64,000 bases of DNA. Source: Euglena gracilis. Its lineage: Eukaryota. The translations under genes were made by a program, and so were the position numbers. The notes beneath the pieces are model-generated. The model was not told the DNA's origin. It saw only the letters and a program-made list of their open reading frames with translations, and searched no databases. This document shows positions 6,595-53,212 of this stretch, in pieces. The stretch's first letter is position 1. Each line of letters starts with the position of its first letter. The stretch covers positions 7,017,425 to 7,081,424 of the forward strand of contig CP154954.1 of the NCBI GenBank assembly GCA_039621445.1. The letters are read 5' to 3'.

Positions 6595-8187
6595 CAGACA
6601 TTCATTTAGTGTGGTACACCAAGGTTGTCATTTTGTGGTTCACTGTGGACACCAAATTTTTTTTTGTGGTTCACCTGTGGACACCAAAAATTTTTTTGTG
6701 GTTCACCTGTGGACACCAAAAAAAATTTGTGGTTCACATGTGGACACCAAACATTGGGGTCAAAAAATTGATTTTCCTAAAAATTTCTCGAAAATGGTGG
6801 GGAATTAAAGGAAAGGTCCGGCGACCTGAATTGAAGCCCTTTGAAGCCGTATCTAAGGGTATTTTGATTTCCCCGCAACTCCCCACCCAGCCCGAGTTAC
6901 GTCCATTTTCCGGCAAATTTGGGCCATTTTGTACAGTGGCCTGTTTTGATTTAGCCGTTTTAGGTCATTTTTGTGTGAAAAAGGTCTAAAACGTTCGAAA
7001 AAAAATCGAAAAGAAATTGCCCGAAACATGTTTCCCGGACCCGGAAGACCTGTTTTTGAGCCGAAAATGAGCGTTTTTCGACCCCCGTCCCCCCGTTTTT
7101 TTTTTGCCCGGAACCCACGCATTTGGGTGCAAATTTTTATATTTAGCCTCAAGGGGGTCTTAAAATACACACCTGGCGCGAAGCACCGGAAGTTTTTTTT
7201 TTTTGCCCCTGCAGAGGAGGGGGCCAAAATGCTTCCTTTTTCTTTTTTTTCCCCACCAGGCTTCTGCTTAAGGGATTGCAGTACCCCCCCCCCTCCCGGG
7301 GGGGGACTGGACTGCAGCTAGTCCAAATTTGGCTAGTGGGATTTCTAGCAGACCCCCCCGGGGGGGTCTGCAAGCAGGGCTGGCTAGTGGAAAATTTTTT
7401 CCAGTGACCGGCGCGACCCCCAAAAATGGCCAAAAATGCCCGTTTTTGGCCATTTTTGGGAATTTTTGGAACAAAATCTGCCAAAAACCTATTAGAAACC
7501 TCATTTCCACCTCGGTGCACAGCGCCGGAGGAAAATTTTTTTCCAGTTCGGGGGGCCCCTGGGGGGGGGAGGGGGGGGTCTAGCTAATCCATTTTTTCCA
7601 GTGTCTGGCCGATTGGCTAGCCAGTACCCCCCCCCCCCGGGGTCCTTAAGCAGAAGCCTGTTCCCCACTCTTTTTCAGTTTTCCCCCTATTTTGTGATGT
7701 CAAGCAATGAATCAAGTGATTATGTGTCAAATTTGGGCTTGGATTGGAAGTATTTGGTCTGAGAAGGACAGTTCTGAGGATTGTGTGTCCTTTTCCGACC
7801 TGAGATGTGACAGTGATTTCTCCTTTGGGAGGGGTGCGAACTTTTTAGGGAGGTAGTTTTGAACCCTTGGGGGGTGCGCACTTATTAGGGCACTGCGCAT
7901 AATTAGGGCATTGCGCACTTATTTGGGGGGGTTAACGGGTTTAACCGGAGCCAGGGTCCACAATTTGGCTGAGGTGTCTCAAGATCAATCAATTTCGATC
8001 CTCAATCAATCTTTATGGGCAAAATTTTTTGTGGACGCCAAAAATGTTTTGTGGTTCACTGTGGACACCAAAAAATTTTTTGTGGTTCACCTGTGGACAC
8101 CAAAAAAATTTTGTGGTTCATCTGTGGACACCAAAAAAAAATTTGTGGTTCACACGTCTTTTGTGAACCACACTAAATGAACGTCTG
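6595..8187. mobile_element. hAT-like non-autonomous element, family A, copy 1
   Basis: TIR cagacattcatttagtgtgg...ccacactaaatgaacgtctg; perfect TSD gtccgggg; subterminal arrays of about 29-bp tttgtggttcacctgtggacaccaaaa at both ends; contains a nested family B copy. Confidence 0.92.
7257..7660. mobile_element. hAT-like MITE, family B, nested in family A
   Basis: TIR caggcttctgcttaagg...ccttaagcagaagcctg (perfect 17 bp); perfect TSD ttccccac. Confidence 0.95.
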
Positions 8188-11107: not shown

Positions 11108-11971
11108 ATGGCGACGGTCGCCCCGACCGTCCGGTCCGTCGGGGCCACGATGCGGCGGCCGTCGCAGCACCAGGCCAGGCGGCTTCCAACAAGGAATTCC
11201 CCCGGGGGGCCGGGATCTCTGGGAAGCTGAGGTTGGTGGTCAGAAGGGGGTCCCGACCCCCGGGGTCCAGGTGATCGGGGGGGGGGGGCAGACCTTGGTG
11301 GGTTCCAAAAGTTGTGCAAAAATTCTTTCAGAGCTCTGCGCTGCGAAATGCAAAAAAAATCACTTTTTCTTCTTTATTTTCCCTCACCACTACACATTAC
11401 CCTGCTACGCCCCTCCCCACTTCCCCCCCTGCCCCCCCCCCGGTCTGGGCAAAACGCCTGTCGCCGGCGCACAACGAGCTGCGGGCCCGCAGTGACCAGC
11501 AGAAGATGCACCAGAGCTGGGCGGGCGCTGCCGTTCCGGGTGACTGGAAAGACTGCCGGTTCCCCCCACCCACCTTGAGGTAAGCTTTGGGGGGGGGGCT
11601 TGGAGGTCCCATTTTGCGTTCCAGTTCACCGCTTTGTTTTGGGGTCGCAGAACTTTGACAAATACCCCTCTCACCACGCTTTGCAACAAACCTGCGGGCC
11701 ACATCTCCAGCAAACCCACTCCCGCGTTGAAAAATAATGCATTTCAGGCTGGTTTTTTCTAAAAAAAATACCCGTCCGGTCTGCAAAGCGATTCATTGTG
11801 TGCCTATTTTAAGGTTCAGGTGTAGGTGGTTCGGGGCACCAGCTAGGTTTTGAGTGTTGTGGCTGCAGGAAAAAAGCTGGTTGGGCTCTTTGGTTGGGCT
11901 TTTCGAACCATGAACCATGAACCAGCAATTTCCAAGGAAAGTCTAGCCAGGCCAGTGAATTTGTAGCACAC

Positions 11972-12003
<32 letters not shown>

Positions 12004-15000
12004 GCACATACCATTGCCCATCACTGGATGTCTTGACGGGCAAAGCTCCCCCCACAAACGAACTCGGGGTTCCCGCGATAGGGAGGCCCGATTGACCCTG
12101 GCTGGGCCACCGCCCGCCCGCTGGCGAGGGCATCTTCCGGGCCATCAAGGAGGGCCGGCGGGTGGAGGTGAACCGCCTCGTGCAGCGGGACCCGTCGGTG
12201 CTCATCAGCTGCGGCCGAGGGGTCCTCGGCGCCGGTGACAATGGCGCAAAAACGCAAATTGCACTGTGGGTGGGACCACACAACCACTTCGTCCCTGGCC
12301 GACCCCCCCAAGTGAATGGTTTTTTTTAGATTGATTGGTTTTTGGGCCGGACTTCTCCCCCCAAACCAGAAAATTGACTGCTACCAAAGGCGCCGAAAAA
12401 ATTCCTTCTTGTGGTCAATTTCCTCTTGGGTTCCCGAGTGGCCGAGTGGTCCCCTTGACTTTCCCGGGAGTCGGTAAAAAATTGTTTGTTTGGGACCTCT
12501 TTCGGAAAGTGGTGCCGGATCTGCACACACCCACCCACCCACGCACAAACATGCGGATACACCTGCACATCTGCAAACAAATGAAATCATGCTTTCCTTA
12601 GGTTCACGTTTCCACATTATGTATTTTCTTTTCCATTATCATCATCATGTGTTTATTCAGTGTCCTTTGTTTAATTTTGCAACCATTGTTTTGCTGTTGT
12701 TGTTGGTGGTGGTGGTGGTGGTGTTGTTTCAGGAATGTGTGCACCCCAGCACCATTTCCTGTGGGAGAAGTCCCTTCGTGGGCGACGCCGTGGGGGCGAA
12801 TCCGATCCACATTGCCTTCCTCTACCGCCAGACAGAGATCGGCCAAACCCTCGTCCGACAATACCCCGAGCTGGCAGACAGGCGGACCTTTGCCTGGCGC
12901 GATACTGTTGTCTGGCACGCGCGCATGTGTGTGTGTGTGTGTGTCCATGTGTATTTCCTTTCGACCTTGGTTTATCGCCGCCCAGGTCTTTACCTTCCCA
13001 TTGAGCATTGCATTTGCATTCGTCTGGATGCGTGGGGCAGTGCTTATGCAGGATCAGCACTTTGGGGCGTTTTGTGTTTTCCAACTGTTGCATCTAACAG
13101 CGACCCTGTCTGACTCTGTTCCCACTGGCACTCTCGGTGGGAAGACTGAAGTGTGCTGCTCAATTCAAGAGAATGTGCATATCTGTGATTGCGCAGATGT
13201 ACCATCCCTCCTGTTCCTGAAAGGTTTCCCTACTCCCGACGTCGGTGTACGGGGAGGGGGAGTACAGCGGGGAGAACATCCTGCACATCGCCATCATCCA
13301 CCAGGACGTGGAGCTGGTGCGCTGGCTGCTGAACCGGGATCAGGATTTGTTTGCCGGATGAAAGTGGGTGCAGGCGGTGGGATTAGAGCCAAGCATTCCC
13401 CAGGTCTGGTTTTGTTGAAAACTCCTCTTGTCTTCTCCCTCTGTACTCCACAATCCCCTGGGTTTGTGCAATTGGGGGAGGTCAAAGTGTACCAACTTTT
13501 TGCACAGTTGCTACCTCCTGAGCATGTATGCATATTTGGAAGGCCCTGGACCTTCTGCAGCAATGGCACGGCGAAATTTCTTTGGCCCAAATTTCACAGT
13601 GGAATGCAAGGTACGTTGGAACTTTTATCGCTTTCAAAGTTAGCCATGAAGTGTACAGTTCTTGCATTCACACCCGTCGGCACAAAAAAATATTCTGAGT
13701 GGGACCCAGAGCTGCTCAACGCGGAGACCACTGGCTCGTTCTTTGCCCCCAGCGGGGACGTGTATTTTGGAGGCCCAGGGGTTGCCTCACAACCCAATCT
13801 TGGGGCTCCAAGCTACAAAATGGTGTCGGAGCCAGCCACTGCTCCTCCTAGTTACAAAACTCAATATTCTGGAATGGAGAGTTTTTTGGGGAGAAAATGT
13901 CTTGTAGGAAATATGTACACCTGAATAATCAGCACTGCAGTTTCAAGCGAAGCTTGGGAAAGGGTCTAGTGATGTTGCATTTGCTAGACGAAGAAGAGCA
14001 GGAGGAGGATGTTGACGTGAGGAATTTGTTTTGGAACGTTTTCTTGAGTGGTGCAGAGTGCACAAAGTCACAGGAATTGGTTCTTAATTTGCTGTTGTTG
14101 TTTTTGTTGCTATTGTTGTTGTCGTTGTTGGTGTTGCTGATGTTGTTGAAGGTATTTTTGCAGTATTTGAAAATATTGGTGACAGTCTTTTTGCGGGCGA
14201 CTGTGGGATACGATGATAGGAAATTCACCCCCAAATGCCAAATGCCAAATGTGTCTCCTTTCAGATTGAGACGGGCGTCCCGTTGGCACGGGACAGCTGT
14301 CGTCTCAGGTGGGCCATTTTGGCCCAATTTGTCGCAGGAAACTGAATGCCACCTGGATGCTCGTGGTGTATCCACTGCAACCGTCTGAGTTGGTCCCTGG
14401 TGGAGCTACAGCCATGCACATATGGGGGAGCCAATTGTACCCTTCCCATAGAATTGTACCAGTGTAGGGCAGTGTGGGCTGTGGAACGGTACCAAACCTA
14501 CACAGGAGAGAGAAACCTGTCAATGACAGTTTTGAGCCTCAAACGCGACGGGTTTGGCCGGTTGGCGGGCCCTGCCGACGGTACCCGCTGCTGTTCGCGG
14601 TGTCCAGCAACCAGATCGACATCCTGCAGTACATCCTCGCCACCCGCAACGCGGAGCGCTGCCGCATGCGCGGCCACTTCAAGAACCAGCCCAGGGCGGT
14701 GCACGGCGACTGTTTCGAGTAGGAAGGCCACAAGCAGAAAGCTGGCAACCGAGGTGTGGTCACGCTTCCTTTTAGCATGGTCGCTGGAGATTTGAACAAT
14801 TTATATTGTGGCTTCGGAAGCTTGGGCATTCATAACCCCCACGCTGTCCCAATTTACGCCGAGATTTCTCCTTGCAACAGAACAACAACAGAACACCAGT
14901 ACAAGAAGAGCACCTCACCATCTCCGTCCAAGTGGAGAGCATACTCTGTGGGGCGTTTGTGGTTTCCCATAAATGAACCTAGTTCAGCCGACTGAATGGC

Positions 15001-18000
15001 TGAATGACAACAAATACTGGTTGCGTCGCCGGCCGGCCGCCGCCCTGGCCGAGATCACGACCACCGATCGCTTCGGGAACTGCGCGCTCCACATGGCGGT
15101 CATCCATGGGCTGGAACGCTCTGTGCCTCCCCGAACGGATTGCCACGGGAAGTTGTCCACTGAGGAATTGGAGAGGCCTAAATAGATTGTCGACCCAGAA
15201 AAAACGAATTTCAAACTCATATTTTCAGATATGAAAATATGTCCCAATAGTATGAAGGAGCATATGTCAGGGATCAATGAGTGATTTTGGCCAATTTTCC
15301 CTCCAACTCCGTTGGTCCACCGGGGGAAGTGTGTATTTTTGTATTTTTCGGCCAAAGTTTGCTGAAACCTTAAAACTTGGCCCAACCTGAATACCGAATC
15401 CAGGCCTAAATTTAGGCCTGAATGCGTGACCGTAACCCGATCCCTATCATTAACCCTGCATCCAGCGTCTGAAAACCCAACTGAAAAAGTGGTGTGGTTT
15501 CCAGGACCCCCGAAATTGGGGTACTGATGTGTTACTAAAACAGGGACTGGACCCCTCTTCATACTACTGGGACGTGGGCCCAGTAGCAGGCTACCAGCTT
15601 TGTAGTTGCATACAAAAAAATTTGGCTCAAAAAGGCCAAAAGTTTTAGGCCTAAAACTCGGCATAATTTTGGGAGGCCTAGCTCAGGCCTAAAAACTAAA
15701 TCCAACTCCGAGGCCTAACCATATCCCTAGCCCTGTCTCAATCATTTACGCCAATTACCACCCTCGGGGACCACCGCAAAAGGGAGGGGTCAGGCGAACC
15801 CTTGGTCGTCCGAGGCAAAACTACGATAAGGGCCTTTAAGTTGAACAAGCCGAAGATCCTGGGGGCAATTGCAAATCCTTCATCCTGATAAGTGTCCGCA
15901 TCCGGTCGCCGGAGCGGGATGAAACGAATACCTTGAGTTTCTCGGTGCCTTTCTTTTGAAGAGCCGAAAGCTTTTCAGAATGCGGATCAGTCTGAAACAA
16001 GGAAGCTGGTGAACTGTGGGAGGGGCGATGCCGAAAGTGAACAGGATCGTCACTGGCAGGCGGCGAATGGCACAACACCGTATCCTGCGTCTTTGTTGGG
16101 AGTGATTCGGCAAAGAGCGCTTCAGCGGTCGACCTGCCCGATATGTACGACCAACTGCCGTCTTTATTGAATGCCTCTTTCCCTTGTGTTGCACTTGGTG
16201 CGAATTGCATGTTCCTGAATCCAAAAAGAAAGTGGGGGAGATGAAGCCGGAAACGATTGCAGTCTGCAAAAATATGGTGTTCGGCTCTGCGAGGTTGCAT
16301 TCTTTTCAGTGTTTTTGATGGTAAGTGATTGTTGGCATCCAAAAAAGTTGAAAAAGTTGACGTTGGCCAATTTGTGTGACTGAGCAACAGATTATGGTGG
16401 AAGAAAAGCCTTGCATGCAGGCAGACAGACACGGAATTCATACGGATTTTGGTGTTTGTATCGCCATTTTTTTCAACTCACATCTGCTGCCTGCCTGTTA
16501 TCTGGCTGCGTTTGCGCTGTTTGCCTGTGCATGCGTTCATATGTGCACATTGATGTACGCACATTCATACTCACATGTGCATAATCATATATGTGCATGC
16601 GCATGTGAATGCGATTCCGTGTGTGTTCGCGTGTTTTTTGTTCGGTTTGTGGTCTGGTGCTCGGAGCGTCGCACGCAGGCACCCACAGCGCGTGACAGCG
16701 GCTGCCCGCGATTTCGTGGTGGAGGAGATGCGCCGCCACGGGCTGACCCACACCGACGTGCGGCACCGCCTCAATGTGGAGCGGCTCACCCCGCTGGCCC
16801 TCGCCGCCGCTATGGGCCAGGAGCGCATGTTCCGCCCAGCCGGCCTGTCTGCCCCCCCCCCTGTGCCCCGCAAGAACTAATTTGCCGACAGGTTTTATTT
16901 ATATCTGCTTTCAGCTTTCGAACTGCTGCTGGCTGTTACAATTGTTACAATATTAAACAGTATGATTTAATGACAGCCTCTATGGGTAGGGTTGCAACTG
17001 TCGCTCCTAAATGGTCTTAGGGTTTGGGTGGGCCAAAGTCAGGGAGTCAGGCCGAAATCGTGCCTAAATTCTGGCCTAAATTTTGCCTATTTTTTTCAGC
17101 CTGAATTTAGGCCAAACGGCCCAAATGCTCACCCTGACCCTATTCCCAAACGCCAACCCCATCCCTATCTTACCCAAACCTTTGCCTTATATAAAAAGTG
17201 GACTTTCCCTATTGCACATTTGTCATGGGCACCTTCGGTGGGCAGCACGAAATCGCAGGTCGTTAGAGGCTGCCGATTTGGTAATATACAAAAAAGAAAA
17301 AAACGTAAAATAAAATTTGTAAAACAAAACGGTGTGCCAAAATTTTTTTCCCCTCGAGTTGTATGGGTGGGTACCAGGGATTTTTTTAGTCGTGGACCCC
17401 CGGGGGGGGGAGGGGGGGTAGGCAGGGTTCGATATAAGGAGGGCGTACATGGTTTAGGTGGGCGGGTGCCCCCCCCCCCCCCCCCCCCTCCTGGCCCGCA
17501 GGGGGGGGGGGTCCGGACCACCCCCCCCCCCCACCTGCAAGGGGGTTCCGGACCGACCCTGGGGGGGTACCCGGGACCCCCCCCAAAAAGGGTCAATTTT
17601 TTCCTCCAGCGCTTCGCGCCGAATTTTTTTTGCATTTTTGGCCAATTTTTGCCCAAAAAGTGCCCAAAATGGCACTTTTGGTCGTTTTGGGGGGTCAAAA
17701 ATTTTCACCCTGACCGCGCCACTGTTTAGGTGGGGGGGGTCCCCCCCCCCCCCCCCCCCCCCCTCCTGGCCTGCAGGGGGGTCCGGACCACCCCCCCCCC
17801 CCCTCTCCTTATATCGAACCCTGGGGGTAGGGTGGGTGGGTCCGACCGAGCCCCCCCCCCCCCCCCCAGGGGGGGGTCCCCCGGAGGGGGGTGGGATATA
17901 CTTTTCGGCCGAGAATTTTTTGAAAAAGCGCTATTTTAGCACTTCGCGATTTTTTGTGGGTCCCCCCGGGACCCCCCCTCCCCCTCCCCGGTTTCCTGGT

Positions 18001-21000
18001 GGGTACTCAACCCCAAGCCCCAAAGCCTTTGTCAGCCCATGGGATGGTGGTGGTAGTGTTAGCGTGGTCCTGCTCCACATGGCAGCTCTGCCACAGGACT
18101 TGGTGCAAATGTGACGCTGGTTATGTGATTCAATTGGTGACCCTTCCTGTTTGCCATTCAAACCTCAGCACAGGCAAACGGGCCGGGGGGTGACAGGAAA
18201 ATGGACTACCCCACTCGCCAATTCTTTGAATCCACAGAATTCTCAAAGTGGACAAATCTTCTCAAAGTGGAACCCCAAGCCGCGTTGGGTTGGGCAATTC
18301 ATTAAATCTGATTAACATCAAACAATAGTTGTCGAGAACGGACCCCTCAACCCGTCAATGAATAGTTATCCAGCGACGACTGTCGGCAAGTGTCAAGTAT
18401 TTTCTGGGTCGGGTCCGAACCAGATTTGAGTTCGTATGTCTGCACCGTTGCCTCTGGACAGCGGCTGCTTCGCACCACATTTTGGCCAAGAACTCCGTCA
18501 TTGCCTGGGATTATGGCCCTGTGCAGGCCGTGCTGTGTGGCCTCTTGAAAACTGCACACAAAGAGAACCACCCACCATTCGTTTGTGTGGGTGATTGCGT
18601 GCATTCTTTAACCCATGACACCCCCGGAGGGGGTGTTGTGGGTGGTTGGGTAGGTGGGCGAGATGTCAAAAATTGTTTTGGTGGGTTGGCAACCCAGAGG
18701 GAATTACCTGGGCAACCCTGAAAAAGTACCCCATCGGAGGTTGAATAGCTCCCCCCCCCCATCCAAACACCGTGCCTTGAGACCATACCGTTGCTTAAGG
18801 TGTGTCTGACACCACTCCCAATCTTCAAGGAAGGTGGTTTTCAATGGCTTGTTGGCAAAAAGGGCCAAATATTTTGGCATTTGCCCTGCGGCATTCACAA
18901 GCGAGTGAGGAGTAAGAAAAAGTAAGAAACGTTGGACAAAGTGCATAATTTCTTTGCGAACTCACGCTCCGAGTAAATTCGAATTTTTTCAGAGCCGGCG
19001 CCACCACTCCATCCCCAAACTAATTCGGATACTGCGTGACCGCTGTGGCGCATGCGCTGGCACCAACCGCCCTCACACCACCAGGCAGAAGGTTTCTTCG
19101 GCGGTACATGCTTGTGGTCCGAGTTATCCGAAAGACAGTGTCAGTCAGCCTGTGTGCCAGCTCCCCCCCCCCCAGGAATCGGCCAAACAGTCAGGGTGGT
19201 GGGTGGGGGGGGGGGAGGGTCGACCCCCACCTCCTCCTGTATTTCCAGGAGCACCGATTTTCGATCCCAAATATTTTTTCCAGGCCTTCGGCCCCGGGAG
19301 GAAATCTGTGAAGAATGCTGTGGTGGGTGGGGGGATCGACCCCCCCCCCACCGGTGTGCCCCACCCCCTCCGGCGACCCCCACACCGCCGCCTGGCGCCG
19401 TGACGTGCAAGCTGTTCCCGCTCGGCGGGCTGGAGCAGCCGTTCATCGACCCGGACACGGGCCGGTTCGTGAAGACCTCCATCGAGTGCATGTGCGCCGG
19501 CGCCCAGAGCCCCGCCCAGGCCGACAGCAAATGGCGCCATGCATCCATCGCCATGAAGTTTCGATGCCCCCCCCCCCCCCTATGTCGAAACCCCAACCTA
19601 GTTGGAGGACACCTTTTTGGAGGTTTTGTCCAACTTCTGCATTTTTGCTGCCCAAAAGCTTCCATTTTGTAAACTTTTTTTTTGGCAAAAATTTGTTCAA
19701 AAAAAAGAAAAAAACAGCAGTGCCAAAAGGATAATTTTAACTTTGGGGGGTTGGGTCTCGGGCACCCCACCAGTCTGTGGAATTTGTTTTGGGCCTCTTG
19801 TCAAACGACCGACCTCCAGGTTGGAGGGCATCTTTTTGGTCAACCATCCATCCAATGCAGGGAGCGCTACCCCTGGGCTCCAAGCGGGCCTTCCAATCTC
19901 CCTGACGTAACCAGGAATAAACTTCGGCCCCAGCCAGTTCTTTCTTTTCAAACCAGGCAGATACGGTCTGCCAGCATCACGGAGTGCCTCAAATTTGTCG
20001 ACAACAAAATTCCCAGCAAAGTGGAACAGGCACCGTGGTAGCGGCTGCGCCACAGACTCCTGTCGCACTTCTGAAAATAGCACCCAGACAAGTATCAGAG
20101 ACACACAACGCTCTTGAACTTGCGAAGCCTCATTTGGCAAGTGTCAGTGCTTTTTGTTGGGTTTCCAGCGTTTCAACTCCATAAGTGCAGGTCATGAAAT
20201 GCTGGTTTCCTGAATGGTCTAGTGGGCGTTTTTCAGGGAGTATTTCTCTTTTTTTTCGCCTTCCAACCGGCTTGGAGATGCCTACCCTCCCCCCTATGTC
20301 CAACGACCCCCCTATGTCCAATGACCACCCCCCCGGTCAGAGGACACCTTTTCGGAGGTTTGACCAAATTTTTGGTCCCGGCGCACCGGGACGAAAAATT
20401 TTGCCCAAAAATTGGCCAAAAATTTGGCCAAAATGCCATTCTTGGCACTTTTTGGACAAAAATTTGTCAAAATTGCCCAAAATTTTCGGCGCGAAGCGCC
20501 GGAATGGAAAATTTGGGCATTTTTGGGTGGGTAGGGACCCGGGTACCCACCAACTTTCTTTTGACCCCATGTCCAACGACCACCCCCCCCCCCGGTCAGA
20601 GGACACCTTTTTGGTCACTACCCTATGTCCAACGACCACCCCCCCCCCCCGGTCAGAGGACAGAGGTTACCGGTCATTGGACATAGGGGGGGGCGGGTAC
20701 TTAAAGTTCACTTGGCACGCGATTCCTAACTCCAGCCTCCAACCTACGCCGGACCCGGCACCACGCGCCGCGGCTGGACCTCGTCGTCAGCGCGGAGGTG
20801 CGGCAGGTGCTGGACAAGAAGTGGGACGCGTTCGGGCAGCGCATGTTCTACCGGAAGCTGGCGGTGGCCCTCGGCACTGTGCTGGCCTGGACCGCCGCCA
20901 GCATCATTCCCGCCCAGGGGGTGGCTAGAGCTACTCTCCCCCCCATGCCCAATGAACGCCCATGCCCAATGAACAGGGGGTGTTCGGACTGTCTAGCTTA

Positions 21001-23186
21001 GTCTAGATTGTCACCTTAGTTAGTGTTCATTGGGCTTGGGGCGGGGGAAGGAAGGAAAGGGGGTACCATGCTAAAACCCTTCTGAAGAGGTACCCCCCAA
21101 GGAACTCAGCAGAACTTGTCCAACCCTCTCTTTTCGCAACCTCTTCCCATGTCTTGGAACCTGTCCCCTACTCTTCCCCCCCCGTTTTTTTTCGACTTTT
21201 TGGCCCGAAATGGCCGAAAATGGCGTCGGAAGCCTGCCGCGCTATTTCGGGCCGTAAATCAACCATATATCGGGCTTGGTGGGGAGTTACGGGGAAATCA
21301 AAATACCGTTAGATAGGGCGTTCCAAGGGCTTCAATTTAGGTCTGACATTTCCTTTGATTTGCTTCATTTCCGATACATTTTTAAAACATCGATTTTGCT
21401 ACATTGTGGATATATTTTGAAAAAAATCGATTGATTGACCAAAAAAAAAAACGGCCGAAAAGCACCCCAAAATGGCCGGTTTGGGCCACAAAAGTGCTAG
21501 GCGTGTCGGCGGCCAAAACGGCGAACAGGGGGTGATAGAGGGTCTCTAGGGGTACATTTCGTCAGAACCACATTTCTGGAAATATTGTAAGTTTTCTCGA
21601 GATATCTTCGAAAATCGATTTTTTGACCGAAAATCTCACCCCGGCGAAATGGCAGAGTCGAAACTGGGGGGGGTGGCGAATCCGAGTTTGGACCCCTTCG
21701 TGGCTGAATAACTCGGGCCTGGCGGGGAGTTGGGGGTCAAACGGAGGTGATTTGGAAACTCAGTGCATTTCCCCCCCATGAAGCTAATCCATGTATTGGA
21801 CCTGCTGACCTGTCGGACCAACGGTGCGACCAAAACAATGATTTTTAATGAAAAAATAAACATTTTCCATTTTGGAAAACAATTGCTCTTCGTCAGCTGG
21901 AAGCCGAAAGCCCTGTCCCCCAACCACTACAGCCTTGCCGACCAGAACCGCGTGGACTTCCCAGTGGCCAACGCCGTCATCCAGGCGCTGGAGCTGTTCG
22001 TCTTCCTCTCGGTGAGCTGGCGGGGCCTGTGCGTGGTGTACAGCAACTGCCTGCCCACCCATGTCAGTATCGTTCAGGGCTTCGTCGTTGGGCTTTTGGA
22101 TTCCTCAAGCCTCCAAAAGGCTGAGGACTGCCTTTTTTTTTGAGGTTTCTTCATTTTGTGCTTGGATCGGGGGGAACCAAACTATTGACATTCTGTATTT
22201 TTCCATGATTATTTTTTTGAGGAACCAGGAGATTTGCACGCCAGGTGGCACATGAACCGGGTCTCGCGAGCATATATGTACACATACACAAGTTAACGTG
22301 CACGTATGCAGGTACATATAATATATACACATATGTATGTATATGTGTATGTATATATATACATATTTACATATATACACACACATATGTACATATATAT
22401 ACACATATACCCACAAGCACACGTGTGCCATGGCTGCAATAAGGCCACACCAACCAAGGATTATTTTCGGTAAATGTTGGCATGTACAAATCAATCAGTG
22501 ACGAAGTGACACTTTCTTTTTCCCCCCTGTCGAACTTGTTGAGCACACATGAAGAAAGCTTCAACTACAAATGGGCTGTTTAGCTGAGAGCCTGCCTTGA
22601 GGGTGCTGCGGTTGGGATGTGCCAGTTTTTGGGGCTGGCTGCAGCAGCGACCCTGTGAGTTCTTGTTCAACATGCAGCACTGTAGTTTGGGTATTTCAAA
22701 ACGTGTCCGGATGCCCCCAGGGGCAGGTGGCACACCCAGTAATGTTCATTTAAGTAATTTTAATTTTATTCCCCCCGCCCGCTTGTTCAAGGCTGTGCCA
22801 TGATCTCGTATCAACAGCACAGTTTTTTTGGTATTTGAGAAAGCCTTCTCTCTCTACTTTGATCATTTGGCTGGATCTGTGATCCAAAACAGAACCGAAA
22901 TTACATACAAGGGCCATCTACCACTTGCACACTGGGTCGTTCACCCCCCCCCCCCGCCGTGTCCCAGAACATTGGCATCTTGGACAGGGGGGGAACGGGA
23001 AATAAAGAAGTAACTCAAGCTGGGGCCAGCCCGGCCGGAAACAAACTGCCTGGGGTGCGCAGCCGTGCTCGGGAGACCCACGGCGCGGCGGCGGTGGAGG
23101 CGGCGCTGGGCAACGTGTTCTGCGGCTTGTACCTGTCCTCCCTCGCCTTCCGCCCAGGGAACCGCAGAGGGCCGACCCCCACTTGG

Positions 23187-23222
<36 letters not shown>

Positions 23223-26200
23223 ATGTTTGAGCCCATGTCCATACGCCTTTCTGTCTGCTCTCCTGTTTTGTTTGTCTGCAGAAATTCAGGACACCTGCTA
23301 TGACACGCAGCGTTGCCCTGCCCGCTGTCTTGCGGAGCTGCCAACCCTCGTTGACATCACCGCTGCCTTTGCCGCCCTCACTGGCTGGCTCCACGTGTTC
23401 TTCTTCTTGCACAGGGTGGTTTTTTTCACACATAAATCATTGAAGACTGATTAAGGTAATGACGTAGCAAGGAGACAGCAACTCAGTCACACCACAGGGC
23501 AGGGTCCAGAACATACACTCACTTAGTCAATGCCCCCCATGGGATTGGATGATTGGTTTTTTTAGAGTTACTGCATGGTTTTTGGCCAGAGGGTGGATGC
23601 ACTTCTGGGTCGGAACACACATGCCTCAATGCAGGTACGTGCTCGAGTGCTTGACTAACTGTCCTGGAAGCACTTGGCTTCCGTTCCACAGGTCCCTTCG
23701 TCATTATGATCAAGGAAATGCTGGAGTATGAGCTGGCCTGGGAGATATTGTAGCACACCGTTTATGTGGGGCCTGGGCGAGAGGGTGTTCCGACCTCCCC
23801 CACCTGCCGTTTTGTCGCACCCGGGTGGTGTTCTCACAGTTTTGGATATGACAAACAGCATCAACCAATTTGCCCCACTCAAAACCCCTAGGAATGCCAA
23901 CCATGGGAGACCAGCCTAAACTAAACAAAAAATTTGCAAGTGGATTGGTTTTAAGCATGCCCTCAAAATCGAATTTGGCCATTTCTTTGGAAATTTTTTG
24001 GACAATTGGGCTTTTAAACGGCAAACTGTTGAGTATTTGGAGGTTTTTTAATTTTGAGGTGGGGTCATTTTCAGGGAATTTTCACGAAATGCCTCGGTTA
24101 TGAAGGGGGGGGCGGACCCCTGGTTTGTTGGATCATCTATACTGGATCGTGGGGCCCCCTCAGCTATCCCCCCCGAGCTATTCCTGGGTTTTATTTGCAT
24201 TAAGAAACACGATCAACGACGTCCAACGTTTGGACAATCATTTGCATTTATTCTGAAGCAGCATGGACACACAGTTGTTTGAAAGAAAAAATACATGCAC
24301 ACAAATCTGGGTCTGGGGATGTCCACGGCCCTCAGGCTTCAGGCAGATTGGTCCAACACTGCTATCCCCCAGCCACCGTTTGGACCACTCATTGTTGCCA
24401 CCAGTCTCAACCCTCTGATTCTCACCTCCCTGTGGGGGGGGGTTCAACCCCACTCAATCCTCTGGGCCTTTCCCTCTCCCAAGCCAGAGGCAGACATCCG
24501 GCGCTTCCTGTCGGTGTACTTTGCGGTGCTGCTTGGCTTCGCGATGTCACTGTATATGCTGACCGAGAACCTCCAGTGACAATGCCCGGCAAGTTCCGAC
24601 AAATTGAAACCATTCCCAACAATGCCCGCCCGCTCCTGGCAATTCCGGGCAAATCCGGACCATCCAACGATTCGCAACAGCAGCACCGAATATCGCTTGC
24701 CCGGAGGGGCTCGGGGGCGACATACAGCCAGGACGAGCACGGGCCCGACGCGTTCCTGAAGCACCTCTGCCCAGGGCCCAGGGCCCAGGGCCTATGGGGC
24801 TGGCTGTGGCCATTGCTTCACAGGGCACCACTTGAGCCTCTTTTCTGACCCAAAAAAAACCCACCGCAGGGCACAAAGGAGCGTTTGGGCCAGTAAAGGA
24901 TCAGCAGCCCCATCCCTCACCAGGGAACAGTAGCACTCCAGTGTATCCCCTGCAAAGATACGCAATATATTATTCCGAAGTGAAGGAAACGCTAGATTTT
25001 TGGCATGCCACTGATGCCAACAGCTTTTTGATGCTAAACGCTCTTTGAGCGGGATAAACCTCCCTCCTCAAATAAGTCCAACCAAAAAAATGAAGCAACC
25101 CCAAAAACAAAACCCCCCCAGCCGATTTTCACCGAAGATATTCACAGGAAAACCCAAGAATGGCCCGTAAAGCTGAGCCAATTTTCGTTGATGGCGAAGG
25201 ATCCAGCTTTATGGACCTATTTTGAGCCCTACCACAGATATTTATCCCCCCCCCCCTGTGATAAGAATCCCCCTTCTGACGGGACACATTATGTTTTTGG
25301 GTGTTATTTCTCCGCTTTCCAATGGCACAACAGCATCGTGCGATTGTTGGTATGCCCTCAAGACCCCTTCCTCCAATCAAACCCCAAAAAACATAAGACC
25401 TTGGGCTACATTTTGGTCCCGTTGCTGAAAATCCCAAAAGGGATCTTCAAATTCAACTCTATCTTCAACTTCAGGGAGCCACTTTCGGTTATTGCTGAGG
25501 GCGTTGGTTAAAAATAACATTTTTTCTGCAATTTCCGCAACTTCCCACAATTTCTGCAATTTGCTGCAATTTTCTTGCAATTTCTGCAGTTTTCCCCACA
25601 ATTTTCCCAATTTTCCTGCAAATTTTTTCTTTTCTGCAATTTTTCCGAATGAACCTGAAATACAAGGTAAAATGAGTTCTGGATGGTTACCGCCACACAC
25701 ATATGCATGTGTGTGCATCGAAACCCGGGTGTCCCTGGCTCACTTTGACCCCTCTCCCCTCCCCCCTCCGCCCTGCTGGCGGCAGTTTGTGCTGCTTGGG
25801 CTGGTCGGTGACTTCCCGTTCGAGGAGTACAGCGAGCGCTTCAGTGGGGCCCGCATGCTACTGCTGGACCTGCTGGTCATGTCGCCCGGGCTGGGGCCGC
25901 AGGTGTCCCCCCCCCCCCCTGTCGGAGGACAACTTTTCAGGGTGTGATGAGTCTGGGGAAGCTTTTTTTTTGGACCAAAAAATCCTCCCTTCGAAAGTCA
26001 GAGATTCCGGTTCGTTGGACACACATATATATATTGTAAAAGGTTGGATCCCCCAAAAGCCTCAGTGGGGTGGATGTTGGGCGATGCTGGGGTATGGGGG
26101 CTGTAGGGGGCGTCAGGGGGCGTCGGGGGGTGTCGGGGTGTTTCAGGGGGTGTGGGAGTTGAAGGGGGTGGGGGGTGGGGGGTGGGGGGGTGAGGGGATG

Positions 26201-28854
26201 GGGGGTGGGGTAATTTTTCCCGAAATTTTTTCTTTTGTATTTTCGGAAGTGCTGGGATCACTCTGGTTACTTGTAGTCAAAAAAAACGCCCCCCCCCCAG
26301 TTTCATTACAGGACGACTAATTTCAGGACGACTTTTCAGGGGGGAAACATCCATCCTAAAATGAAATTCAAACAACGGGGAAGGGGGAGGCAGGGTTTTT
26401 TGGGGGGGGATTCTGGGATGGCGCATCCCCACCCCAGGCACAGGCACATTCTTGCCATCTCCCTTGGAAAAAAATTGCACCCCCATGCACCAGCCAGTGG
26501 GGAGAGGTGTGGTGTGGGGCGAAATTGCTACCTACACCCCCCTCCCCCCGGGAAACTGTCATACCCGAGAAACTGTCAGGTCCCAGGAAACTGCCAGGGT
26601 CCTTGGTTCCGGCCGACCTGTCAGTATGGGTGGTTCGTCAGGTTCCCTGGTACGGGCCGGCCTGTCAGGTGACAGTTTCCCGGGGGGGGGGGGTAGTTGG
26701 GGCCCCTGTTTTTTTTGCAAAATTATTGGAAAGTTCAAGTTTTTGGGTAAAATGGTGGTATATTTTTTTGCGTTGTGGTTGGTTACATTCGATTTGATCA
26801 AATTCTTGCAAAATGGTCAGAAACAAACGTCTTGTGGTGCATTGGTGTTTTTTTTTGTAAATTTCATTTTCAAAATAAATCTGAAGGACTGACAACATTA
26901 CACAACCCCAGCCTTTTGAACCCCCCCCCCCAAACTTTTCAGAGTCCCACCCGGGAACCTTTCAGAGTCCCCAGCCAACCTATCAGTATTGGAAGCTTTC
27001 AGGGTTTGGTTGCTGTTACCAGCCAAACTGTCAGGTGATAGGTGGGGGGGGGGGAGCTATATGAAATTTGATAACCCCCGAGAGTTAGAGGGTTAGAGGG
27101 TGTAGGAAAGGTACACTGGAAAAAATTACGCGAAAAAACCATGGTATCCCATACTTTTTGTCTCCTGTATTTTTGTCTGGACTGTATCCCGTTATTTTTA
27201 GGGAAGAGGTGCAGACCACCTGACCCATTCCCTCATGGTCAGTGGGATGGGTGATTGGTCAGGTGGGCAATGGTGGTGTGCCTTGTCGGCCCCCGGCCTG
27301 CCGCCGTACATCATCCTGGTGGTCATCCTGCTGCTCAACCTGCTCATCGCCATGATGGGCAACACGTACGCTTGCGTGCAGGAGCAGGCCGAGAAGCGCT
27401 GGTACCTGGAGCGGGCCAACCTCATGGCCAGGGCGACTGGGAGGTTGAAACACCCCCTGGGAGTAGGGCAACAGCCCAAATCCCTGAATTGATCTTGACC
27501 CTCCACAGTCTTTCCTGTACGTCTCATCTGTGCCAGCCAGATCAAAGTACCACACGTTTCTCCTGTCTTCCTTGTTTCAGTGCGACACTTGTTTCATCCT
27601 CACCCGGTCCGTTTCCCCCCTTTTCACTGCAGTGCCCACGTGTCATCATTTATCTATTTCCTTCCCCATGATTGCCCTCTGTTTAAAGCACCTTTTGATT
27701 TAAATTCTGCGTGACATGACATGGATAAATTTTAGTCAATGGTCACATCCAAGTTTGCAAAGTTTTTCTCCTGGCAGGAATCTGTTTTTTTAATCCCCAC
27801 CTGCTGTCTACGCCTACCTTCAGGGCCAGCCGTCATTCTTTCCTGTTCTCTCGGCTTGCGCAACTGTTTGACGCATAAAAAGGTCGTGGTTGATTTTCCC
27901 CTGCTGTTGCCCACCCACGTCAGGTCAGCAGCGGTGGCAACGGTGGCCGGCAGAGTGACGATTGGATCCCGCCCCCCTGCAGCGGGCAGCGTACGAGTCC
28001 GAGCACAGCATGGATGAGATGCAGGATATCCGGAAGGAATATGCCACCCCATTCAACCCAGGCTGCTGTGCATCTCCATTGTGGCAATGTGTGAAACAGG
28101 TGCTATACCATTGATTCCCCTCGAAAATACATATACTGTCACCATATTATTCCACATTTTTTTTTCTCTCACAGAGCAAGTAGTGCACGGAAAGCAGCGT
28201 CACCGCCCAAATTCGGTGTTTCAGACCACCCACCCAGGTTTTTAGGTATTTTTGATTGGTAAGTTCCCACGGGGTTGATATAAAAACATCACCACACAGC
28301 TACACGCACGCACGCACGCACACACACACACAAACGGGAAGCGGGTCTGGTGGGGAACGTGGTTACTTGTCACATGTGACCAGTGTGATGCATGCAACGT
28401 GACACATCACCTGCTGTAAGATCTTTCCGGTCCAAGAAAACAGACCAAGTTAGGAACCGAGGATGACAATACCTGACCTGAGGGATACCCACTCAGGGGG
28501 CGTGGAGTGGGGGGTGAGATATTCGACACGGGCCGTGGGATTCAGGGCAGGGTTTGATATAAGGAGGGCGTACATGGTTTAGGTGGGGGTGTCCCCCCCA
28601 CCCCCCCCCTCCTGGCCCGCAGGGGGTGTCCGGACCCCCCCCCACCTGTCCTTATATCGAACCCTGATTCAGGGTTGCCTTCCGCCTGCCCGGCCCGCCC
28701 AGCAGCGTGCCACTGCCAGGCGGACTCCGTGACGAAGCACCTCGAGTTCTGCCTCACCACCACGTCGTGCTCCGAGTCGTGGAAGTTCCGCCGGCCGTCC
28801 GCGCAGCGCCGCCTCAGCGCCGTGCCGCAGTTCTCGATGCTGACCACCCCGTGA
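11108..28854 (+). CDS. TRPV-like (OSM-9/Nanchung/TRPV5-6-like) ankyrin-repeat cation channel, paralog 1, about 682 aa, 24 exons
   Basis: Exons: 11108-11172, 11466-11514, 12126-12212, 12784-12875, 13238-13337, 13703-13772, 14580-14688, 15053-15107, 16131-16148, 16710-16833, 18474-18520, 19400-19513, 19976-20031, 20770-20911, 21922-22071, 23073-23151, 23327-23408, 23672-23729, 24493-24570, 24729-24768, 25781-25883, 27306-27425, 27985-28055, 28715-28854 (2049 nt, ATG to TGA, all phases consistent). Motifs: [24 protein letters not shown]...[65 protein letters not shown], pore [24 protein letters not shown]-box-like WYLERA. A few junctions are ambiguous by 1 nt. Confidence 0.9.
13338..13702 (+). 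other. Non-conventional intron present only in paralog 1
   Basis: gat-CAGgatttgtttgccg ... cggcacaaaaaaatattCTG-agtgg. Paralog 2 is uninterrupted here (exon 50862-51031). The 8-mers outside CAG/CTG are accgggat and agtgggac (5/8 identical). Confidence 0.85.
17375..17998. mobile_element. hAT-like MITE (family E-like) inside TRPV paralog 1 intron 10
   Basis: CAG...CTG ends, perfect TSD gtgggtac, degenerate TIR; hosts a nested family D copy. Confidence 0.75.
17423..17823. mobile_element. hAT-like MITE, family D, nested
   Basis: TIR cagggttcgatataagga...tccttatatcgaaccctg; perfect TSD ggggtagg. Confidence 0.93.
20285..20697. mobile_element. TA-flanked MITE, family C
   Basis: Ends C(n)tatgtccaa...ttggacataG(n) with TA on both sides; internal ggtcagaggaca repeats; homologous copies at 35172, 39246 and 54025. 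Confidence 0.85.
21250..21640 (-). repeat. Dispersed repeat related to the interior of family A copy 1
   Basis: 21271-21345 is approximately the reverse complement of 6823-6895. Confidence 0.6.
23189..23221. repeat. (GT)n microsatellite
   Basis: Perfect dinucleotide run inside an intron. Confidence 0.9.
24571..24728 (+). other. Intron present only in paralog 1 (boundaries uncertain by 1-2 nt)
   Basis: Interrupts [13 protein letters not shown], while paralog 2 reads LTVSPEQCGLEAF without a break. Starts ctc-CAG; 3' pairing is weak. Confidence 0.65.
26535..26693. mobile_element. TA-flanked MITE, family G
   Basis: Ends C(n)gggaaactgtca...tgacagtttcccG(n); related copies at 39675-39976, about 29830-30020 and about 48110-48515. 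Confidence 0.75.
28548..28666. mobile_element. hAT-like MITE, family D, 119-bp deletion derivative
   Basis: TIR cagggtttgatataagga...tccttatatcgaaccctg; perfect TSD attcaggg; lies in the last intron of paralog 1. Confidence 0.92.
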
Positions 28855-29489: not shown

Positions 29490-29762
29490 CAGGCTTCTTT
29501 TTAAGTCACCTGACCCCCCCCCCCCCCGGGGGGGGAGGGGGGGGGGGGGGGGGGGGGGTGCGGGCCGGACCCCCCCCTGGGGGGGGGGGGTCCCGCGCCG
29601 GAGGCGCTGGGTATACCTTTTCGGCGCGAAGCGCCGAAAATTTTTGAAAATTGCCTTTAACGGCCCCGATTTTGGCCCCCCCCCCCCCGGGGGGGGCCCG
29701 TGCCCCCCTGGGTGGGTGGGGGGGGACCCCCCCTCCCCCCCGGGGTCTTAAAAAGAAGCCTG
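29490..29762. mobile_element. hAT-like MITE, family E
   Basis: TIR caggcttctttttaag...cttaaaaagaagcctg; TSD cccccgaa/cccctgaa (7/8). Confidence 0.88.
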
Positions 29763-30022: not shown

Positions 30023-31810
30023 CAGACATTCATTTAGTGTGGTACACCAAGGTTGTCATTTTGTGGTTCACTGTGGACACCACAAAATTTTTTGTGGTTC
30101 ACCTGTGGACACCAAAATTTTTTTTGTGGTTCACTTGTGGACACCAAAATTTTTTTTGTGGTTCACCTGTGGACACCAAAGTAATATTTGTGGTTCACAT
30201 GTGGACACCAAAAAATTTACCACCGCCTGCTGACATTTGCATCATTTTCTTTCTCATCAACAGCAATGAAGCAATCTTCTTTGAACATATTTGACTCAGG
30301 CGGCGTAATTTGGCCAAAAATTCTGGTGCTCTAAAAACAGAAGAGGAAGCGGAAAACCACTTCCAAAAAAAAGGGTCATATTTTCGATTTTTTTTTTGAA
30401 GAGGTTCTGATTTTGGCCAATTCCGGTGGACGTTTGGCTCACAGTGAAGGAGACCTATACAATCGAAAACAGACCTAAAAAGGCCAACTTATTTTCGAAT
30501 TCTAGTAAAATCAACAAAACCAATCAAAAAATACATGAACAGGAGGAACTGACAAAAACAAGCGTTGTTTCTGCTGCCGTAGGCCCCGAAGGAACGAAAC
30601 AGAAAAATTAAAAAATGGAAGCGGTAAATATTGCATTCCGCTTCAAACGCAGGAGATGTGCAACGAAAACTGAACACAGTGAATCATACAGAATGTAATG
30701 TAAAAATGTGCATGATGTTTGCACACCAAAAAGGAAGCGGAAAACCGCTTTGAAAGAATCCGTAACAAAAATAGTATGAATTGAAATGATCAACAATGAT
30801 CACCAAACGATATTCCAATCCCAACAACAACGAAGAACGTTAACATTTATGAAATTTATGAAAATAACAGAAACTGAACAACCTGAACAAAAATTGAATG
30901 TCATTATCCAAAGTGCATAATGCAAACACGTCAAACCACGTGGAGACAATTGCACGATTTACGAAGGGTAGAACAGGCGAAACGATGCAGACCTTCTGTT
31001 CATTTCCCTGTGCTCCACCTGGAAGGAAGAACATTTCGAAATGACATTGGCGTAAAACCTGCAAAAAAACAGAGCAAATATGAAGCGGTTATCCGCTTCC
31101 TCAGGCTGACATAATACTTTTTAATTATCTCATAGTGCCAAACTGCAAAAACTAGAATGAGGCTGACACTTACCCTTCTGAATGAAAAACTATACTGAAT
31201 GCGGTCTTTCATTGAATGGTCAAGTTGAAGATCTGACACCACAGCAATGAAGTGGCTTTCCGGCTCCTACCTCAAAACAAAGCACATGGCATTGATTTTT
31301 CAGGCACTTTTTCAGGCATTGAGGCACTCGGCACTCAACTGACATCCCACAATGCCCCAGAACGCTCTCAATGTCCGCAGCCATGCCAAAGCCCCACGAT
31401 AATGTCGCGTGTTTCTGCTTCCATGAAGCGGAATTCCGCTTCATCGACGCCAGTATTTAACTTTTTGATGGTATCCTTGTTGGGTAAGTTGTCTATACAG
31501 CACGTCTGCTTGAGAACTCTCGATAGCAATCTGTCCAATTTCAACTGCCACGCTTCGTGGATTGAGCCGGGGCCAAGGCTCACAATGTGGCTGAGGTGTC
31601 TAAAGATAAACCCGCCTTTAGGTGTAATTTTTTTTACTTTTTTTCGATCCTCAATCAACTTTTGTGGACCACAAAATTTTTTGTGGACACCACAAAAATT
31701 TTTGTGGTTCACCTGTGGACACCAAAAAAAATTTTGTGGTTCACCTGTGGACACCAGAAAAAAATTTGTGGTTCACACGTCTTTTGTGAACCACACTAAA
31801 TGAATGTCTG
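30023..31810. mobile_element. hAT-like non-autonomous element, family A, copy 2
   Basis: Same TIRs and subterminal arrays as 6595-8187; perfect TSD gggggggt; different AT-rich interior; inserted into the poly-G end of a family G element. Confidence 0.92.
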
Positions 31811-33253: not shown

Positions 33254-35159
33254 CCGTAGGAGGAGGTTCGATCTCGAACGTTCAAGCTCGAACCTCCTCG
33301 AACGTTTCTAAGCACCCCCTTCAAGGGGGGGCTTAAAAATGTTCGAGGACCCTCCTCGAACGACCTCGAACGACATTCGAGGAAGGTCTCGAACCTCCTT
33401 GAACGACCTCGAACGTCGTTCGAGGAGGGTCTCGAACCTCCTCGAATGACCTCGAATGACGTTCGAGGAGGGTCTCGAACCTCCTCGAACGTCGTCGAAC
33501 GACATTCGAGGAGGGACCTCGAACCTCCTCGAACGACCTCGAACTACATCTCGACCCTCCTCCTACGTACATGCATACAGCTTTCAACACCAACATTCTC
33601 GTAATCCTTTTAGGGTTAGAAAAATATTTTTCCTTACGCAGGAATGCACTCATTCAAAAGTATTTTATTCAAAAATATTCCCATACCAAGAGAATTTCTG
33701 AGGTTATTAGAAGGAATAGGGTTAGGGTTAAGATTTCATCCCCAATGGTTTGCAACCATCCTGCTCATCGTTGTTATATTTCCCTCTACAGGGTACACAG
33801 CGAACCCAAAGAGTCGCCCATGGGGGGACCCGAGCGAGGCGCCGAAGGCGCCGAGCGAGGGTCCCCCCATGTGTATTAACCCTAGTTGGGCGACTCTTTG
33901 GGGTAGCTGGTACCCAGTAGGGGGAACTTTTCCACACATTGTAAAAGAAACATATTTTTTTCTTTCGCAGAATGCACCGATTCTTCAACATTTTTTTTTC
34001 CTTCAAAAATGATCCCATACCGAGAGAATTTCTGAGGTTATTAGAAGGAATAGGGTTAGGGTTAAGATTTCATCGCGAATGGTTGCAACCATCCCGCTCT
34101 TCGTCAGTGGCAGAATTTAAAAGGTACATATTGTTGAGTTGTTTTGTAAGTTGCAAGTCCATGGTTCATTGTTCTTGATTCTGCTTGTTTTTTTTTTGTC
34201 TTTCACTGGCACGATCCGGAAGAAATTAAAGACAGGGGAAGAGAGAGAGAGGATTTTGTTTCAACTGTTTTTTTCCCCCACTGGCATTGACATGATTTGG
34301 AACACAGGAATCTTTCAGTGGCAGAATTTAAAAGGAACATATTTTTCCTTACGCAGGAATGCACTCATTCAAAAGTATTTTATTCAAAAATATTCCCATA
34401 CCGGGAGAATTTCTGAGGTTATTAGAAGGAATGGGGTTAGGGTTAAGATTTCATCCCCAATGGTTTGCAACCATCCTGCTCATCGTTGCTACATTTCCCT
34501 CTACAGGGTACACAGCGAACCCAAAGAGTCGCCCAACTAGGGTTAAAAACATGGGGGGACCCGAGCGAGGCGCCGAAGGCGCCGAGCGAGGGTCCCCCCA
34601 TGTGTATTAACCCTAGTTGGGCGACTCTTTGGGGTAGCTGGTACCCAGTAGGGGGAACTTTTCCACGCATTGTAAAAGAAACATATTTTTTCTTTCGCAG
34701 AATGCACCGATTCTTCAACATTTTTTTTTCCTTCAAAAATGATCCCATACCGAGAGAATTTCTGAGGTTATTAGGAGTAGGGTTAGGGTTAAGATTTCAT
34801 CGTGAATGGTTGCAACCATCCCGCTCATCGTCAGTGGCAAAAATTAAAAGGAACATATTTTTGAGCTGTTTTGTTTGCATGTGCTCCACACCCGTACCCA
34901 AAACACCCAATCGTCACTTGAACCTGCATCGTGGAACCTGCATTGAAAGATTTCGTTTTTTTGTTTCTTGTGTTGCACCACTTGTTGTGGCGACTGTCGT
35001 TTGTTTGGTTTTCATTTCTCCTGATTGATGGATGCATGTACGTAGGAGGAGGGTCTCGAACGTCCTCGAACGACCTCGAACGACATTCGAGGAGGGTCTC
35101 GAACCTCCTCGAATGTCGTTCGAGGAGGTTCGAGGAGGTTCGAGACCCTCCTCCTACGG
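33254..35159. mobile_element. Foldback-like composite element
   Basis: Two self-palindromic tcgaac/gttcga-rich modules (about 33255-33567 and 35041-35158, each cgtaggaggagg...cctcctcctacg) flank a core bounded by tacatgcat/atgcatgta. The core carries a direct duplication (about 33625-34130 vs 34341-34860). Confidence 0.7.

Positions 35160-53181: not shown

Positions 53182-53212
<31 letters not shown>

Follow-up and report, generated by a model that had tools for sequence, protein, structure and literature searches.

The window analysed here, that is, the whole 64,000-nucleotide stretch of Euglena gracilis DNA at positions 7,017,425 to 7,081,424 of contig CP154954.1 (assembly GCA_039621445.1), carries on its + strand a TRPV-like channel gene, paralogue 1, at 11108-28854, and a diverged second copy of it, paralogue 2, at about 47562-62810 (positions are those of the window throughout). 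With a GC content of about 0.5, long runs of C or G and many short inverted-repeat elements, the window resembles nuclear DNA of Euglena. Mobile elements that begin with CAG and end with CTG lie in and around these genes and bear on the origin of the introns of paralogue 1. From the sequence evidence set out below, the locus can with reasonable probability be described as one of two tandem TRPV-like channel genes with about 22 nonconventional (non-spliceosomal) introns, these introns having been born as transposons that duplicate 8 bp of their target.

Two tandem channel genes

Short coding blocks with a high GC content at third codon positions run along the + strand over 11108-28854. Their translations match two transcript-derived Euglena proteins of the EukProt collection, P0001 (1152 amino acids) and P0002 (854 amino acids), and the same blocks match the second gene copy. 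Identity between these proteins and the window genes is 60-96% per exon, and neither protein is identical to either gene; they therefore guide the joining of exons without fixing it. The resulting model of paralogue 1 comprises 23 exons and 22 introns (I1 to I22), with a coding sequence of 2046 nt for 681 amino acids. Its open reading frame is free of internal stops, and 491 of 648 aligned residues are those of P0001 (76% identity). A first-pass annotation of this DNA had rightly recognised a gene of many exons and had counted 23 introns, one more than the model obtained here. The N-termini of P0001 and P0002 extend 360-480 residues further, and nothing in the window matches these extensions at E < 0.01, so that 11108 may not be the true 5′ end of paralogue 1.

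Membership of the TRPV group, i.e., N-terminal ankyrin repeats followed by a TRPV-related six-helix channel domain, was assessed on the homologue P0001. This protein carries ankyrin repeats (Pfam families) and a weak Ion_trans match (20.8 bits, under the cut-off of 25), and its phmmer matches among solved relatives are the TRPV-type Inactive and Nanchung, TRPV6, TRPV5 and TRPV1, with E-values from 1e-39 to 1e-24 (1e-39 to 1e-34 for the best of them). Judged by this homologue, "TRPV paralogue" is a fair name for the gene in the window. Both the gene and its type of intron are ordinary for Euglena.

Paralogue 2 (47562-62810, + strand) was modelled with 17 introns in the window (labelled K); the last exon core in this model reaches to 62810, and no relatives of exons E20-E22 were found for it in the window. 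The tandem copies have 16 intron positions in common, I5 and I18 being present only in paralogue 1 and K13x only in paralogue 2. Intron lengths at common positions diverge strongly (e.g., 462 nt for I11 and 92 nt for K11).

Junction geometry of the introns

The nonconventional introns of euglenids were described, with the positions of CAG and CTG, the stem and the pyrimidine|purine (Y|R) junctions, by Milanowski et al. (2014, 2016; PMC3935182, PMC4770533), and the code 5′-N3CDG-/-CH′GN5-6|R was later defined by knock-in mutagenesis (Nomura et al., 2025; PMC12501133). According to the latter study, the code has a strict 5′ spacer of 3 nt and a 3′ spacer of 5 nt, for which 6 nt is also tolerated, and the variants CGG-CCG, CGG-CTG and CTG-CAG are functional; in E. 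agilis, nonconventional introns make up 71.8%, and 61.2% of such introns fit the code (PMC12501133).

Junctions in the window were placed without reference to any motif. For each intron, all in-frame, stop-free pairs of donor and acceptor near the exon cores were enumerated (about 1,400-3,100 pairs) and the joined peptides were scored against the homologues, the top-scoring junctions forming the best set. GT/GC-AG ends occur in 0 of 22 best sets of paralogue 1 (0.48 expected) and in 0 of 17 of paralogue 2 (0.44 expected), which bears out the earlier report that no intron of paralogue 1 has GT...AG ends. Strict N3-CAG...CTG-N5/6 geometry is found in 9 of 22 best sets of paralogue 1 (0.12 expected) and in 7 of 17 of paralogue 2 (0.085 expected), an enrichment of about 80-fold observed at the level of homology. 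The code with a Watson-Crick middle base and the purine is present in 10 best sets of the 22 for paralogue 1 (0.14 expected) and in 9 of the 17 for paralogue 2 (0.13 expected); I20 (CGG/CTG) can be counted with them, and in three further introns (I9, I11 and K10) the code junction lies one score point under the best. These figures make it scarcely credible that the gene model is wrong, i.e., that the borders are misplaced borders of conventional GT-AG introns or that the gene is an unspliced pseudogene. Three GC-AG pairs do come within 10 score points of the best (in I7, I8 and I13), but not one appears in the 39 best sets, where 0.9 GT/GC-AG pairs would be expected, and a misplaced model accounts neither for the enrichment of the strict geometry nor for a reading frame that stays intact over 22 junctions and yields a product this similar to a transcript-derived homologue.

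Strict CAG/CTG introns with 3- and 5-nt spacers in the best set, all on the + strand like the gene itself, are I5 (13338-13702), I6 (13773-14579), I7 (14689-15052), I10 (18521-19399), I16 (23409-23671), I19 (24769-25780) and I21 (27426-27984); I13 (20912-21921) and I15 (23152-23326) are likewise strict and in the best set, with a 6-nt 3′ spacer and hence a total offset of 9. The same offset is needed by I9 (16834-18473, CAG/CTG), one of the introns whose code junction misses the best score by a point, and I11 (19514-19975, CAG/CTG with spacers of 3 and 5 nt) is another. An offset of 9 is also assigned to I1 (11168-11466) and I3 (12203-12767), both CAG/CTG and both uncertain, since their junctions are guided by the motif alone and lie 8 and 17 points, respectively, under the homology best (12209-12779 in the case of I3).

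Other triplets occur at the offsets of the code. In best sets, I17 (23730-24492) and K17 have CTG/CAG, I20 (25884-27305) has CGG/CTG and K9 has CGG/CCG, all three combinations being among the variants reported as functional (PMC12501133). GTG/CAC is found in both I12 (20032-20769, in the best set) and K12, and TGG/CCG in I2 (11515-12125), whose single best homology junction comes with a terminal stem of 12 positions; spacers are 3 and 5 nt in I2, I12, I17 and I20. In I4 (12876-13237, CAG/CTA), I14 (22072-23072, CAG/GTG) and I22 (28056-28714, CAG/GTG), all in the best set with spacers of 3 and 5 nt, the triplets pair at two positions of three. Altogether, a fully paired triplet of any kind stands at the code offsets in 14 of 22 best sets of paralogue 1, against about 6 by chance on a rough estimate. 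The first-pass annotation had counted complementary or near-complementary triplets, mostly CAG/CTG, in 19 of 23 introns; that criterion is loose. Counting any near-complementary triplet as support was rejected here, pairs matching at two of three positions being common by chance.

Two introns depart from the code. I8 (15126-16709) has CCC in place of the 5′ CAG, with CTG-N5 at its 3′ end; this junction is in the best set, and the GC-AG alternative scores 5 points lower. I18 (24565-24725), if read as intron throughout, is 161 nt long and lacks the code, and no code-conforming junction yields a product of homologue length. An alternative, 24571-24644 (74 nt, CAG/CTG with spacers of 3 and 6 nt), adds a channel loop of about 29 residues, and both versions keep the reading frame open. 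Paralogue 2 lacks this intron and reads through at 61133-61252; the segment 24571-24725, between E17 and E18, may be an exonised remnant of an intron. Set against the earlier count of three introns with an offset of 9 and one unclear case, the offset is needed here in I13, I15 and I9, and the misfits number two.

Across the 37 anchored introns, i.e., those of both paralogues minus I18 and K7, neither of which offers a usable anchor, Y|R junctions are found in 24 at each end, in keeping with the prior description of them as mostly of this type. In 35 of the 37 the downstream exon begins with a purine, as it does in all 21 from paralogue 1; an intron's own two ends pair at 6.68 of 10 positions inside the triplet as against 4.49 (standard deviation 0.23) for permuted ends, and junctions can be slid over short direct repeats in 26 of 37. 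Since geometry, purine rule and stem agree with the published code, the earlier assignment to the euglenid non-conventional consensus stands, and the introns of paralogue 1 are, as far as their sequences tell, very probably euglenid nonconventional introns. That splicing measures a fixed distance from the stem, as the same annotation supposed, is shown by the knock-in mutagenesis, in which a 3′ spacer of 6 nt was also tolerated (PMC12501133).

CAG...CTG elements and the intron K13x

The window was scanned for inverted repeats whose arms lie 40-3000 nt apart, pair at 12 or more of 14 positions, have a true outer end and are free of low complexity; the pairs were classed by terminal triplet and their flanking 8-mers compared. 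Flanking 8-mers that match at 6 or more of 8 positions accompany 28 of 971 inverted-repeat pairs, and they are concentrated in the CAG class, with 8 of 22 pairs (six of them perfect) as against 20 of 949 in all other classes (Fisher p = 4e-8). In these eight CAG...CTG elements, all of which begin with CAG and have arms matching at 12-14 of 14 positions, the left and the right flanking L-mers are identical in six of the eight when L = 8 and in none of them for L = 3-7 or L = 9-12; the duplication that goes with such elements is exactly 8 bp long. Several of the 20 pairs in other classes lie in a tandem array. At 33293-35095, tandem units of about 43 nt yield many spurious inverted-repeat pairs with matching flanks, of the CCT class.

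The CAG...CTG elements, which are given here without strand, fall into three families. Family A includes the elements at 7257-7660 (404 bp) and 35565-36142 (578 bp), each with a perfect 8-bp duplication and 90.7% identical to one another over 420 nt, and an A-like element at 29490-29762 (273 bp), with a 7/8 duplication, some 640 nt 3′ of the stop codon. Family B is represented by 17423-17823 (401 bp), nested in I9, and 28548-28666 (119 bp), nested in I22, both with perfect 8-bp duplications. Family C elements, 1.6-1.8 kb long with subterminal repeats, lie at 6595-8187 (1593 bp) and 30023-31810 (1788 bp, with open reading frames that match no protein family), again with perfect 8-bp duplications. 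The family A element at 7257-7660 is nested in the family C element at 6595-8187, and each has its own perfect duplication, so that families A and C were mobile in succession. Family D, the fourth, comprises repeats some 420 bp long (copies 88-92% identical at 20285-20700, 54027-54444, 39252-39655 and 35179-35482) with inverted ends that do not begin with CAG; two of its copies occur in I12 and K9, and none alone forms an intron.

One intron coincides with such an element, the eighth of the CAG...CTG set. K13x (57406-57784, + strand) consists of 3 nt, a 371-bp element of family A (57409-57779) and 5 nt, its flanking 8-mers matching at 6 of 8 positions, and it interrupts paralogue 2 at a site where exon E13 of paralogue 1 is uninterrupted. 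The element aligns with family A over its full length (69-70% identity over 367-380 nt), with a local score of 81 where dinucleotide shuffles give 12.6 (standard deviation 1.6), and the minimum-free-energy fold of the intron closes with a terminal stem. Cutting 3 nt before CAG and 5 nt after CTG restores the frame and gives the same residue count as in paralogue 1. This junction lies 11 points under the homology best because P0002 has one extra residue there, and no GT/GC-AG option comes within 10 score points of the best. Read from its sequence, K13x directly exemplifies a nonconventional intron which is itself a transposon, its 8-bp duplication being split 5|3 by the predicted junctions. A paralogue-specific intron assignable to a multi-copy family that duplicates 8 bp was not found in the literature searched.

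Origin of the introns and known systems

The mechanism that these observations suggest links the two numbers. Introns would start as insertions of non-autonomous DNA transposons that end in CAG...CTG and duplicate exactly 8 bp of the target. In the transcript, the terminal stem, mostly formed by CAG at +4 to +6 and CTG at -8 to -6, would fold the intron ends together, and the RNA would be severed at two points outside the stem, 3 nt away from it on the 5′ side and 5 nt (sometimes 6) away on the 3′ side, ahead of a purine, before the exons are joined. As 3 + 5 = 8, the RNA-level cut would take out the element together with one copy of the duplication, and a fresh insertion into an exon would therefore be born as a frame-restoring intron. 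Wherever in an exon it landed ahead of a purine, any CAG...CTG element that duplicates 8 bp would thus be removed as 3 nt, element and 5 nt, and would be harmless. Both cuts would fall between positions 5 and 6 of the duplication copies, hence the same Y|R at both junctions. This link between target-site duplication and splice geometry is, in our estimation, fairly probable; if true, it accounts for the spacer sum of 8, for the common Y|R at the two junctions and for the prevalence of slidable introns.

The principal alternative is that the sum of 8 is a coincidence. The offsets would then reflect the seating of a nuclease or ligase that measures RNA structure, most introns would have other origins, such as break repair or conversion of older introns, and the 8-bp-duplicating elements would be one repeat class that merely carries CAG...CTG ends. 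We regard this as somewhat unlikely. It leaves aside the exact 8-bp length of the duplications of CAG...CTG elements, and it has to treat as chance both that K13x, besides belonging to family A, is an intron whose removal according to the code restores the frame and that the identity of the flanking 8-mers peaks at register 0. Break repair, moreover, does not explain inverted-repeat termini common to multi-copy elements.

A second body of evidence concerns duplication remnants in the older introns. When the 8-mers that lie outside the triplets are compared over all 37 anchored introns, they agree at 2.95 of 8 positions as against 2.48 (standard deviation 0.18) when permuted (p = 0.008), and of the registers from -4 to +4 it is register 0 that gives the best agreement. 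I5 has flanking 8-mers matching at 5 of 8 positions and is missing from paralogue 2, which reads through at 50857-51030. The remnant that the first-pass annotation had pointed to, in I10, is exact in its 6 of 8 matches but non-significant by itself: a single intron reaches 6 or more matches of 8 with a probability of about 0.013, and some 0.5 such introns are expected by chance among 37. Remnants in the old introns give a weak signal.

Several results weigh against a transposon origin of the introns at large, or against the particular form given to it here, and most of them favour coincidence. The 8-mer signal is carried by few introns, falling to 2.80 versus 2.46 (p = 0.039) when K13x and I5 are left out, and it is non-significant in paralogue 1 alone (2.90 versus 2.54, p = 0.08); excess identity over controls, of the kind that the earlier proposal called for, is present for both paralogues together but weak for the gene on which the proposal was based. 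Comparison of intron ends with the element families of the window finds similarity in 1 of 37 introns, namely K13x, leaving 36 without it; none of the introns of paralogue 1 resembles these families, the match of I22 being the nested element near its 3′ end, and blastn of all introns against the window returned nested repeats only. A 6-nt 3′ spacer, i.e., a sum of 9, is needed in 11 of 37 anchored introns, while I8 and I18 fall outside the code. K11 (56000-56091, + strand, 92 nt), which has nine equal-scoring junctions, shows at its junctions a direct repeat of 8 nt (7/8), and the second copy of this repeat starts on the G of CTG, for a total offset of 7; either the 3′ spacer would be 4 nt, or 1 nt would have been deleted after insertion. 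Since a 6-nt spacer is tolerated in experiment, the 3′ cut is no strict ruler (PMC12501133). A recently gained gapC intron of E. agilis has eight-nucleotide direct repeats at its junctions, which its authors ascribe to double-strand-break repair (PMC4770533). A protein search with exon E12 returned two non-identical Euglena transcript proteins only, and a search for near matches of the same exon returned none, so that no identical transcript product fixes the junctions. The absence of a transposase from the window and the presence of other 8-bp-duplicating elements in E. gracilis, taken up below, belong to the same side of the account.

On balance, the proposal that 3 + 5 equals an 8-bp target-site duplication gains genuine but narrow support, most of it lying outside paralogue 1, from the elements of the window and from K13x, but the weak remnants leave it plausible rather than shown for the 22 introns of paralogue 1. 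This arithmetic is the new part of the first-pass annotation; what the window adds to it is a single clear example, together with a clean statistic on duplications of 8 bp. No printed statement of the arithmetic or of hAT elements in Euglena was found in a search of openly readable main texts. The introns themselves are known biology, and the rest of the idea is already in print: an origin from MITEs (miniature inverted-repeat transposable elements) and a dedicated machinery that softens transposon insertions have both been proposed (PMC12501133; PMC3935182; 2024 review, PMC11282704). The Discussion of PMC12501133 still calls the origin of nonconventional introns unclear in 2025. A concrete 8-bp-duplicating family with one paralogue-specific intron among its members makes the MITE hypothesis countable genome-wide. 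In its widest form, the reading suggested here would make the pathway a precise RNA-level excision matched to one class of DNA transposons, its families the first non-spliceosomal introners, from which the majority of nonconventional introns (roughly 70% of introns in Euglena genomes) would derive; we advance it tentatively, as a possibility of nearly even weight.

As to the superfamily of the elements, the likeness to hAT-superfamily MITEs lies in the exact 8-bp duplication, in short terminal inverted repeats that start with CAG and in the subterminal repeats of family C. Arrays of the latter kind we take to be typical of hAT elements; beyond CAG, only family B fits what we presume to be the hAT terminal consensus. 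The difference is that no transposase is seen in the 64-kb window. No Pfam family matched in five open reading frames within or overlapping the 1.8-kb family C element, nor in the six longest open reading frames of the window scanned outside the paralogue 2 gene, and families A, B and C contain no recognisable protein domains. The earlier assignment to hAT agrees with the duplication length and the CAG ends, and hAT membership, argued from duplication length, CAG termini and subterminal repeats, is tentative. The elements might instead be real intron sources that belong to Merlin or another superfamily duplicating 8 bp, an alternative that we hold to be improbable. E. gracilis does have two Merlin families with 8-bp duplications, and the lack of a hAT transposase domain in the window fits equally; however, Merlin inverted repeats end in GG, with duplications of 8-9 bp (PMC8101967), so that the duplication length fits Merlin whereas the termini, CAG in all three families, do not. 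The subterminal arrays of family C would likewise speak for a hAT-like source.

Set beside the nonconventional introns of other euglenids, those of paralogue 1 are alike in lacking GT-AG, in having CAG at +4 to +6 and CTG at -8 to -6 with an intron-specific terminal stem, in their Y|R junctions and purine-first downstream exons, in the variants CTG/CAG, CGG/CTG and CGG/CCG, and in frequent junction repeats (slidable in 26 of 37 here, as compared with 84.4% reported genome-wide in E. agilis). Nothing essential differs, and paralogue 1 is an ordinary member of the group.

A more distant comparison is offered by transposon-derived introns, reviewed for the introners of Micromonas, dinoflagellates and fungi and for the noncanonical introns of Fritillaria borealis (PMC11282704). 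As in introners, a non-autonomous DNA transposon with inverted repeats has, together with its target duplication, turned into an intron (K13x here, 1 of 37), and excision of the element with one duplication copy restores the exon. Introners, on the one hand, are spliceosomal introns, and in many cases their splice sites come from the duplication. The euglenid pathway, on the other hand, is thought to be non-spliceosomal and to yield a circular intron product (PMC11282704), and the signal in the window would be the terminal stem of the element itself.

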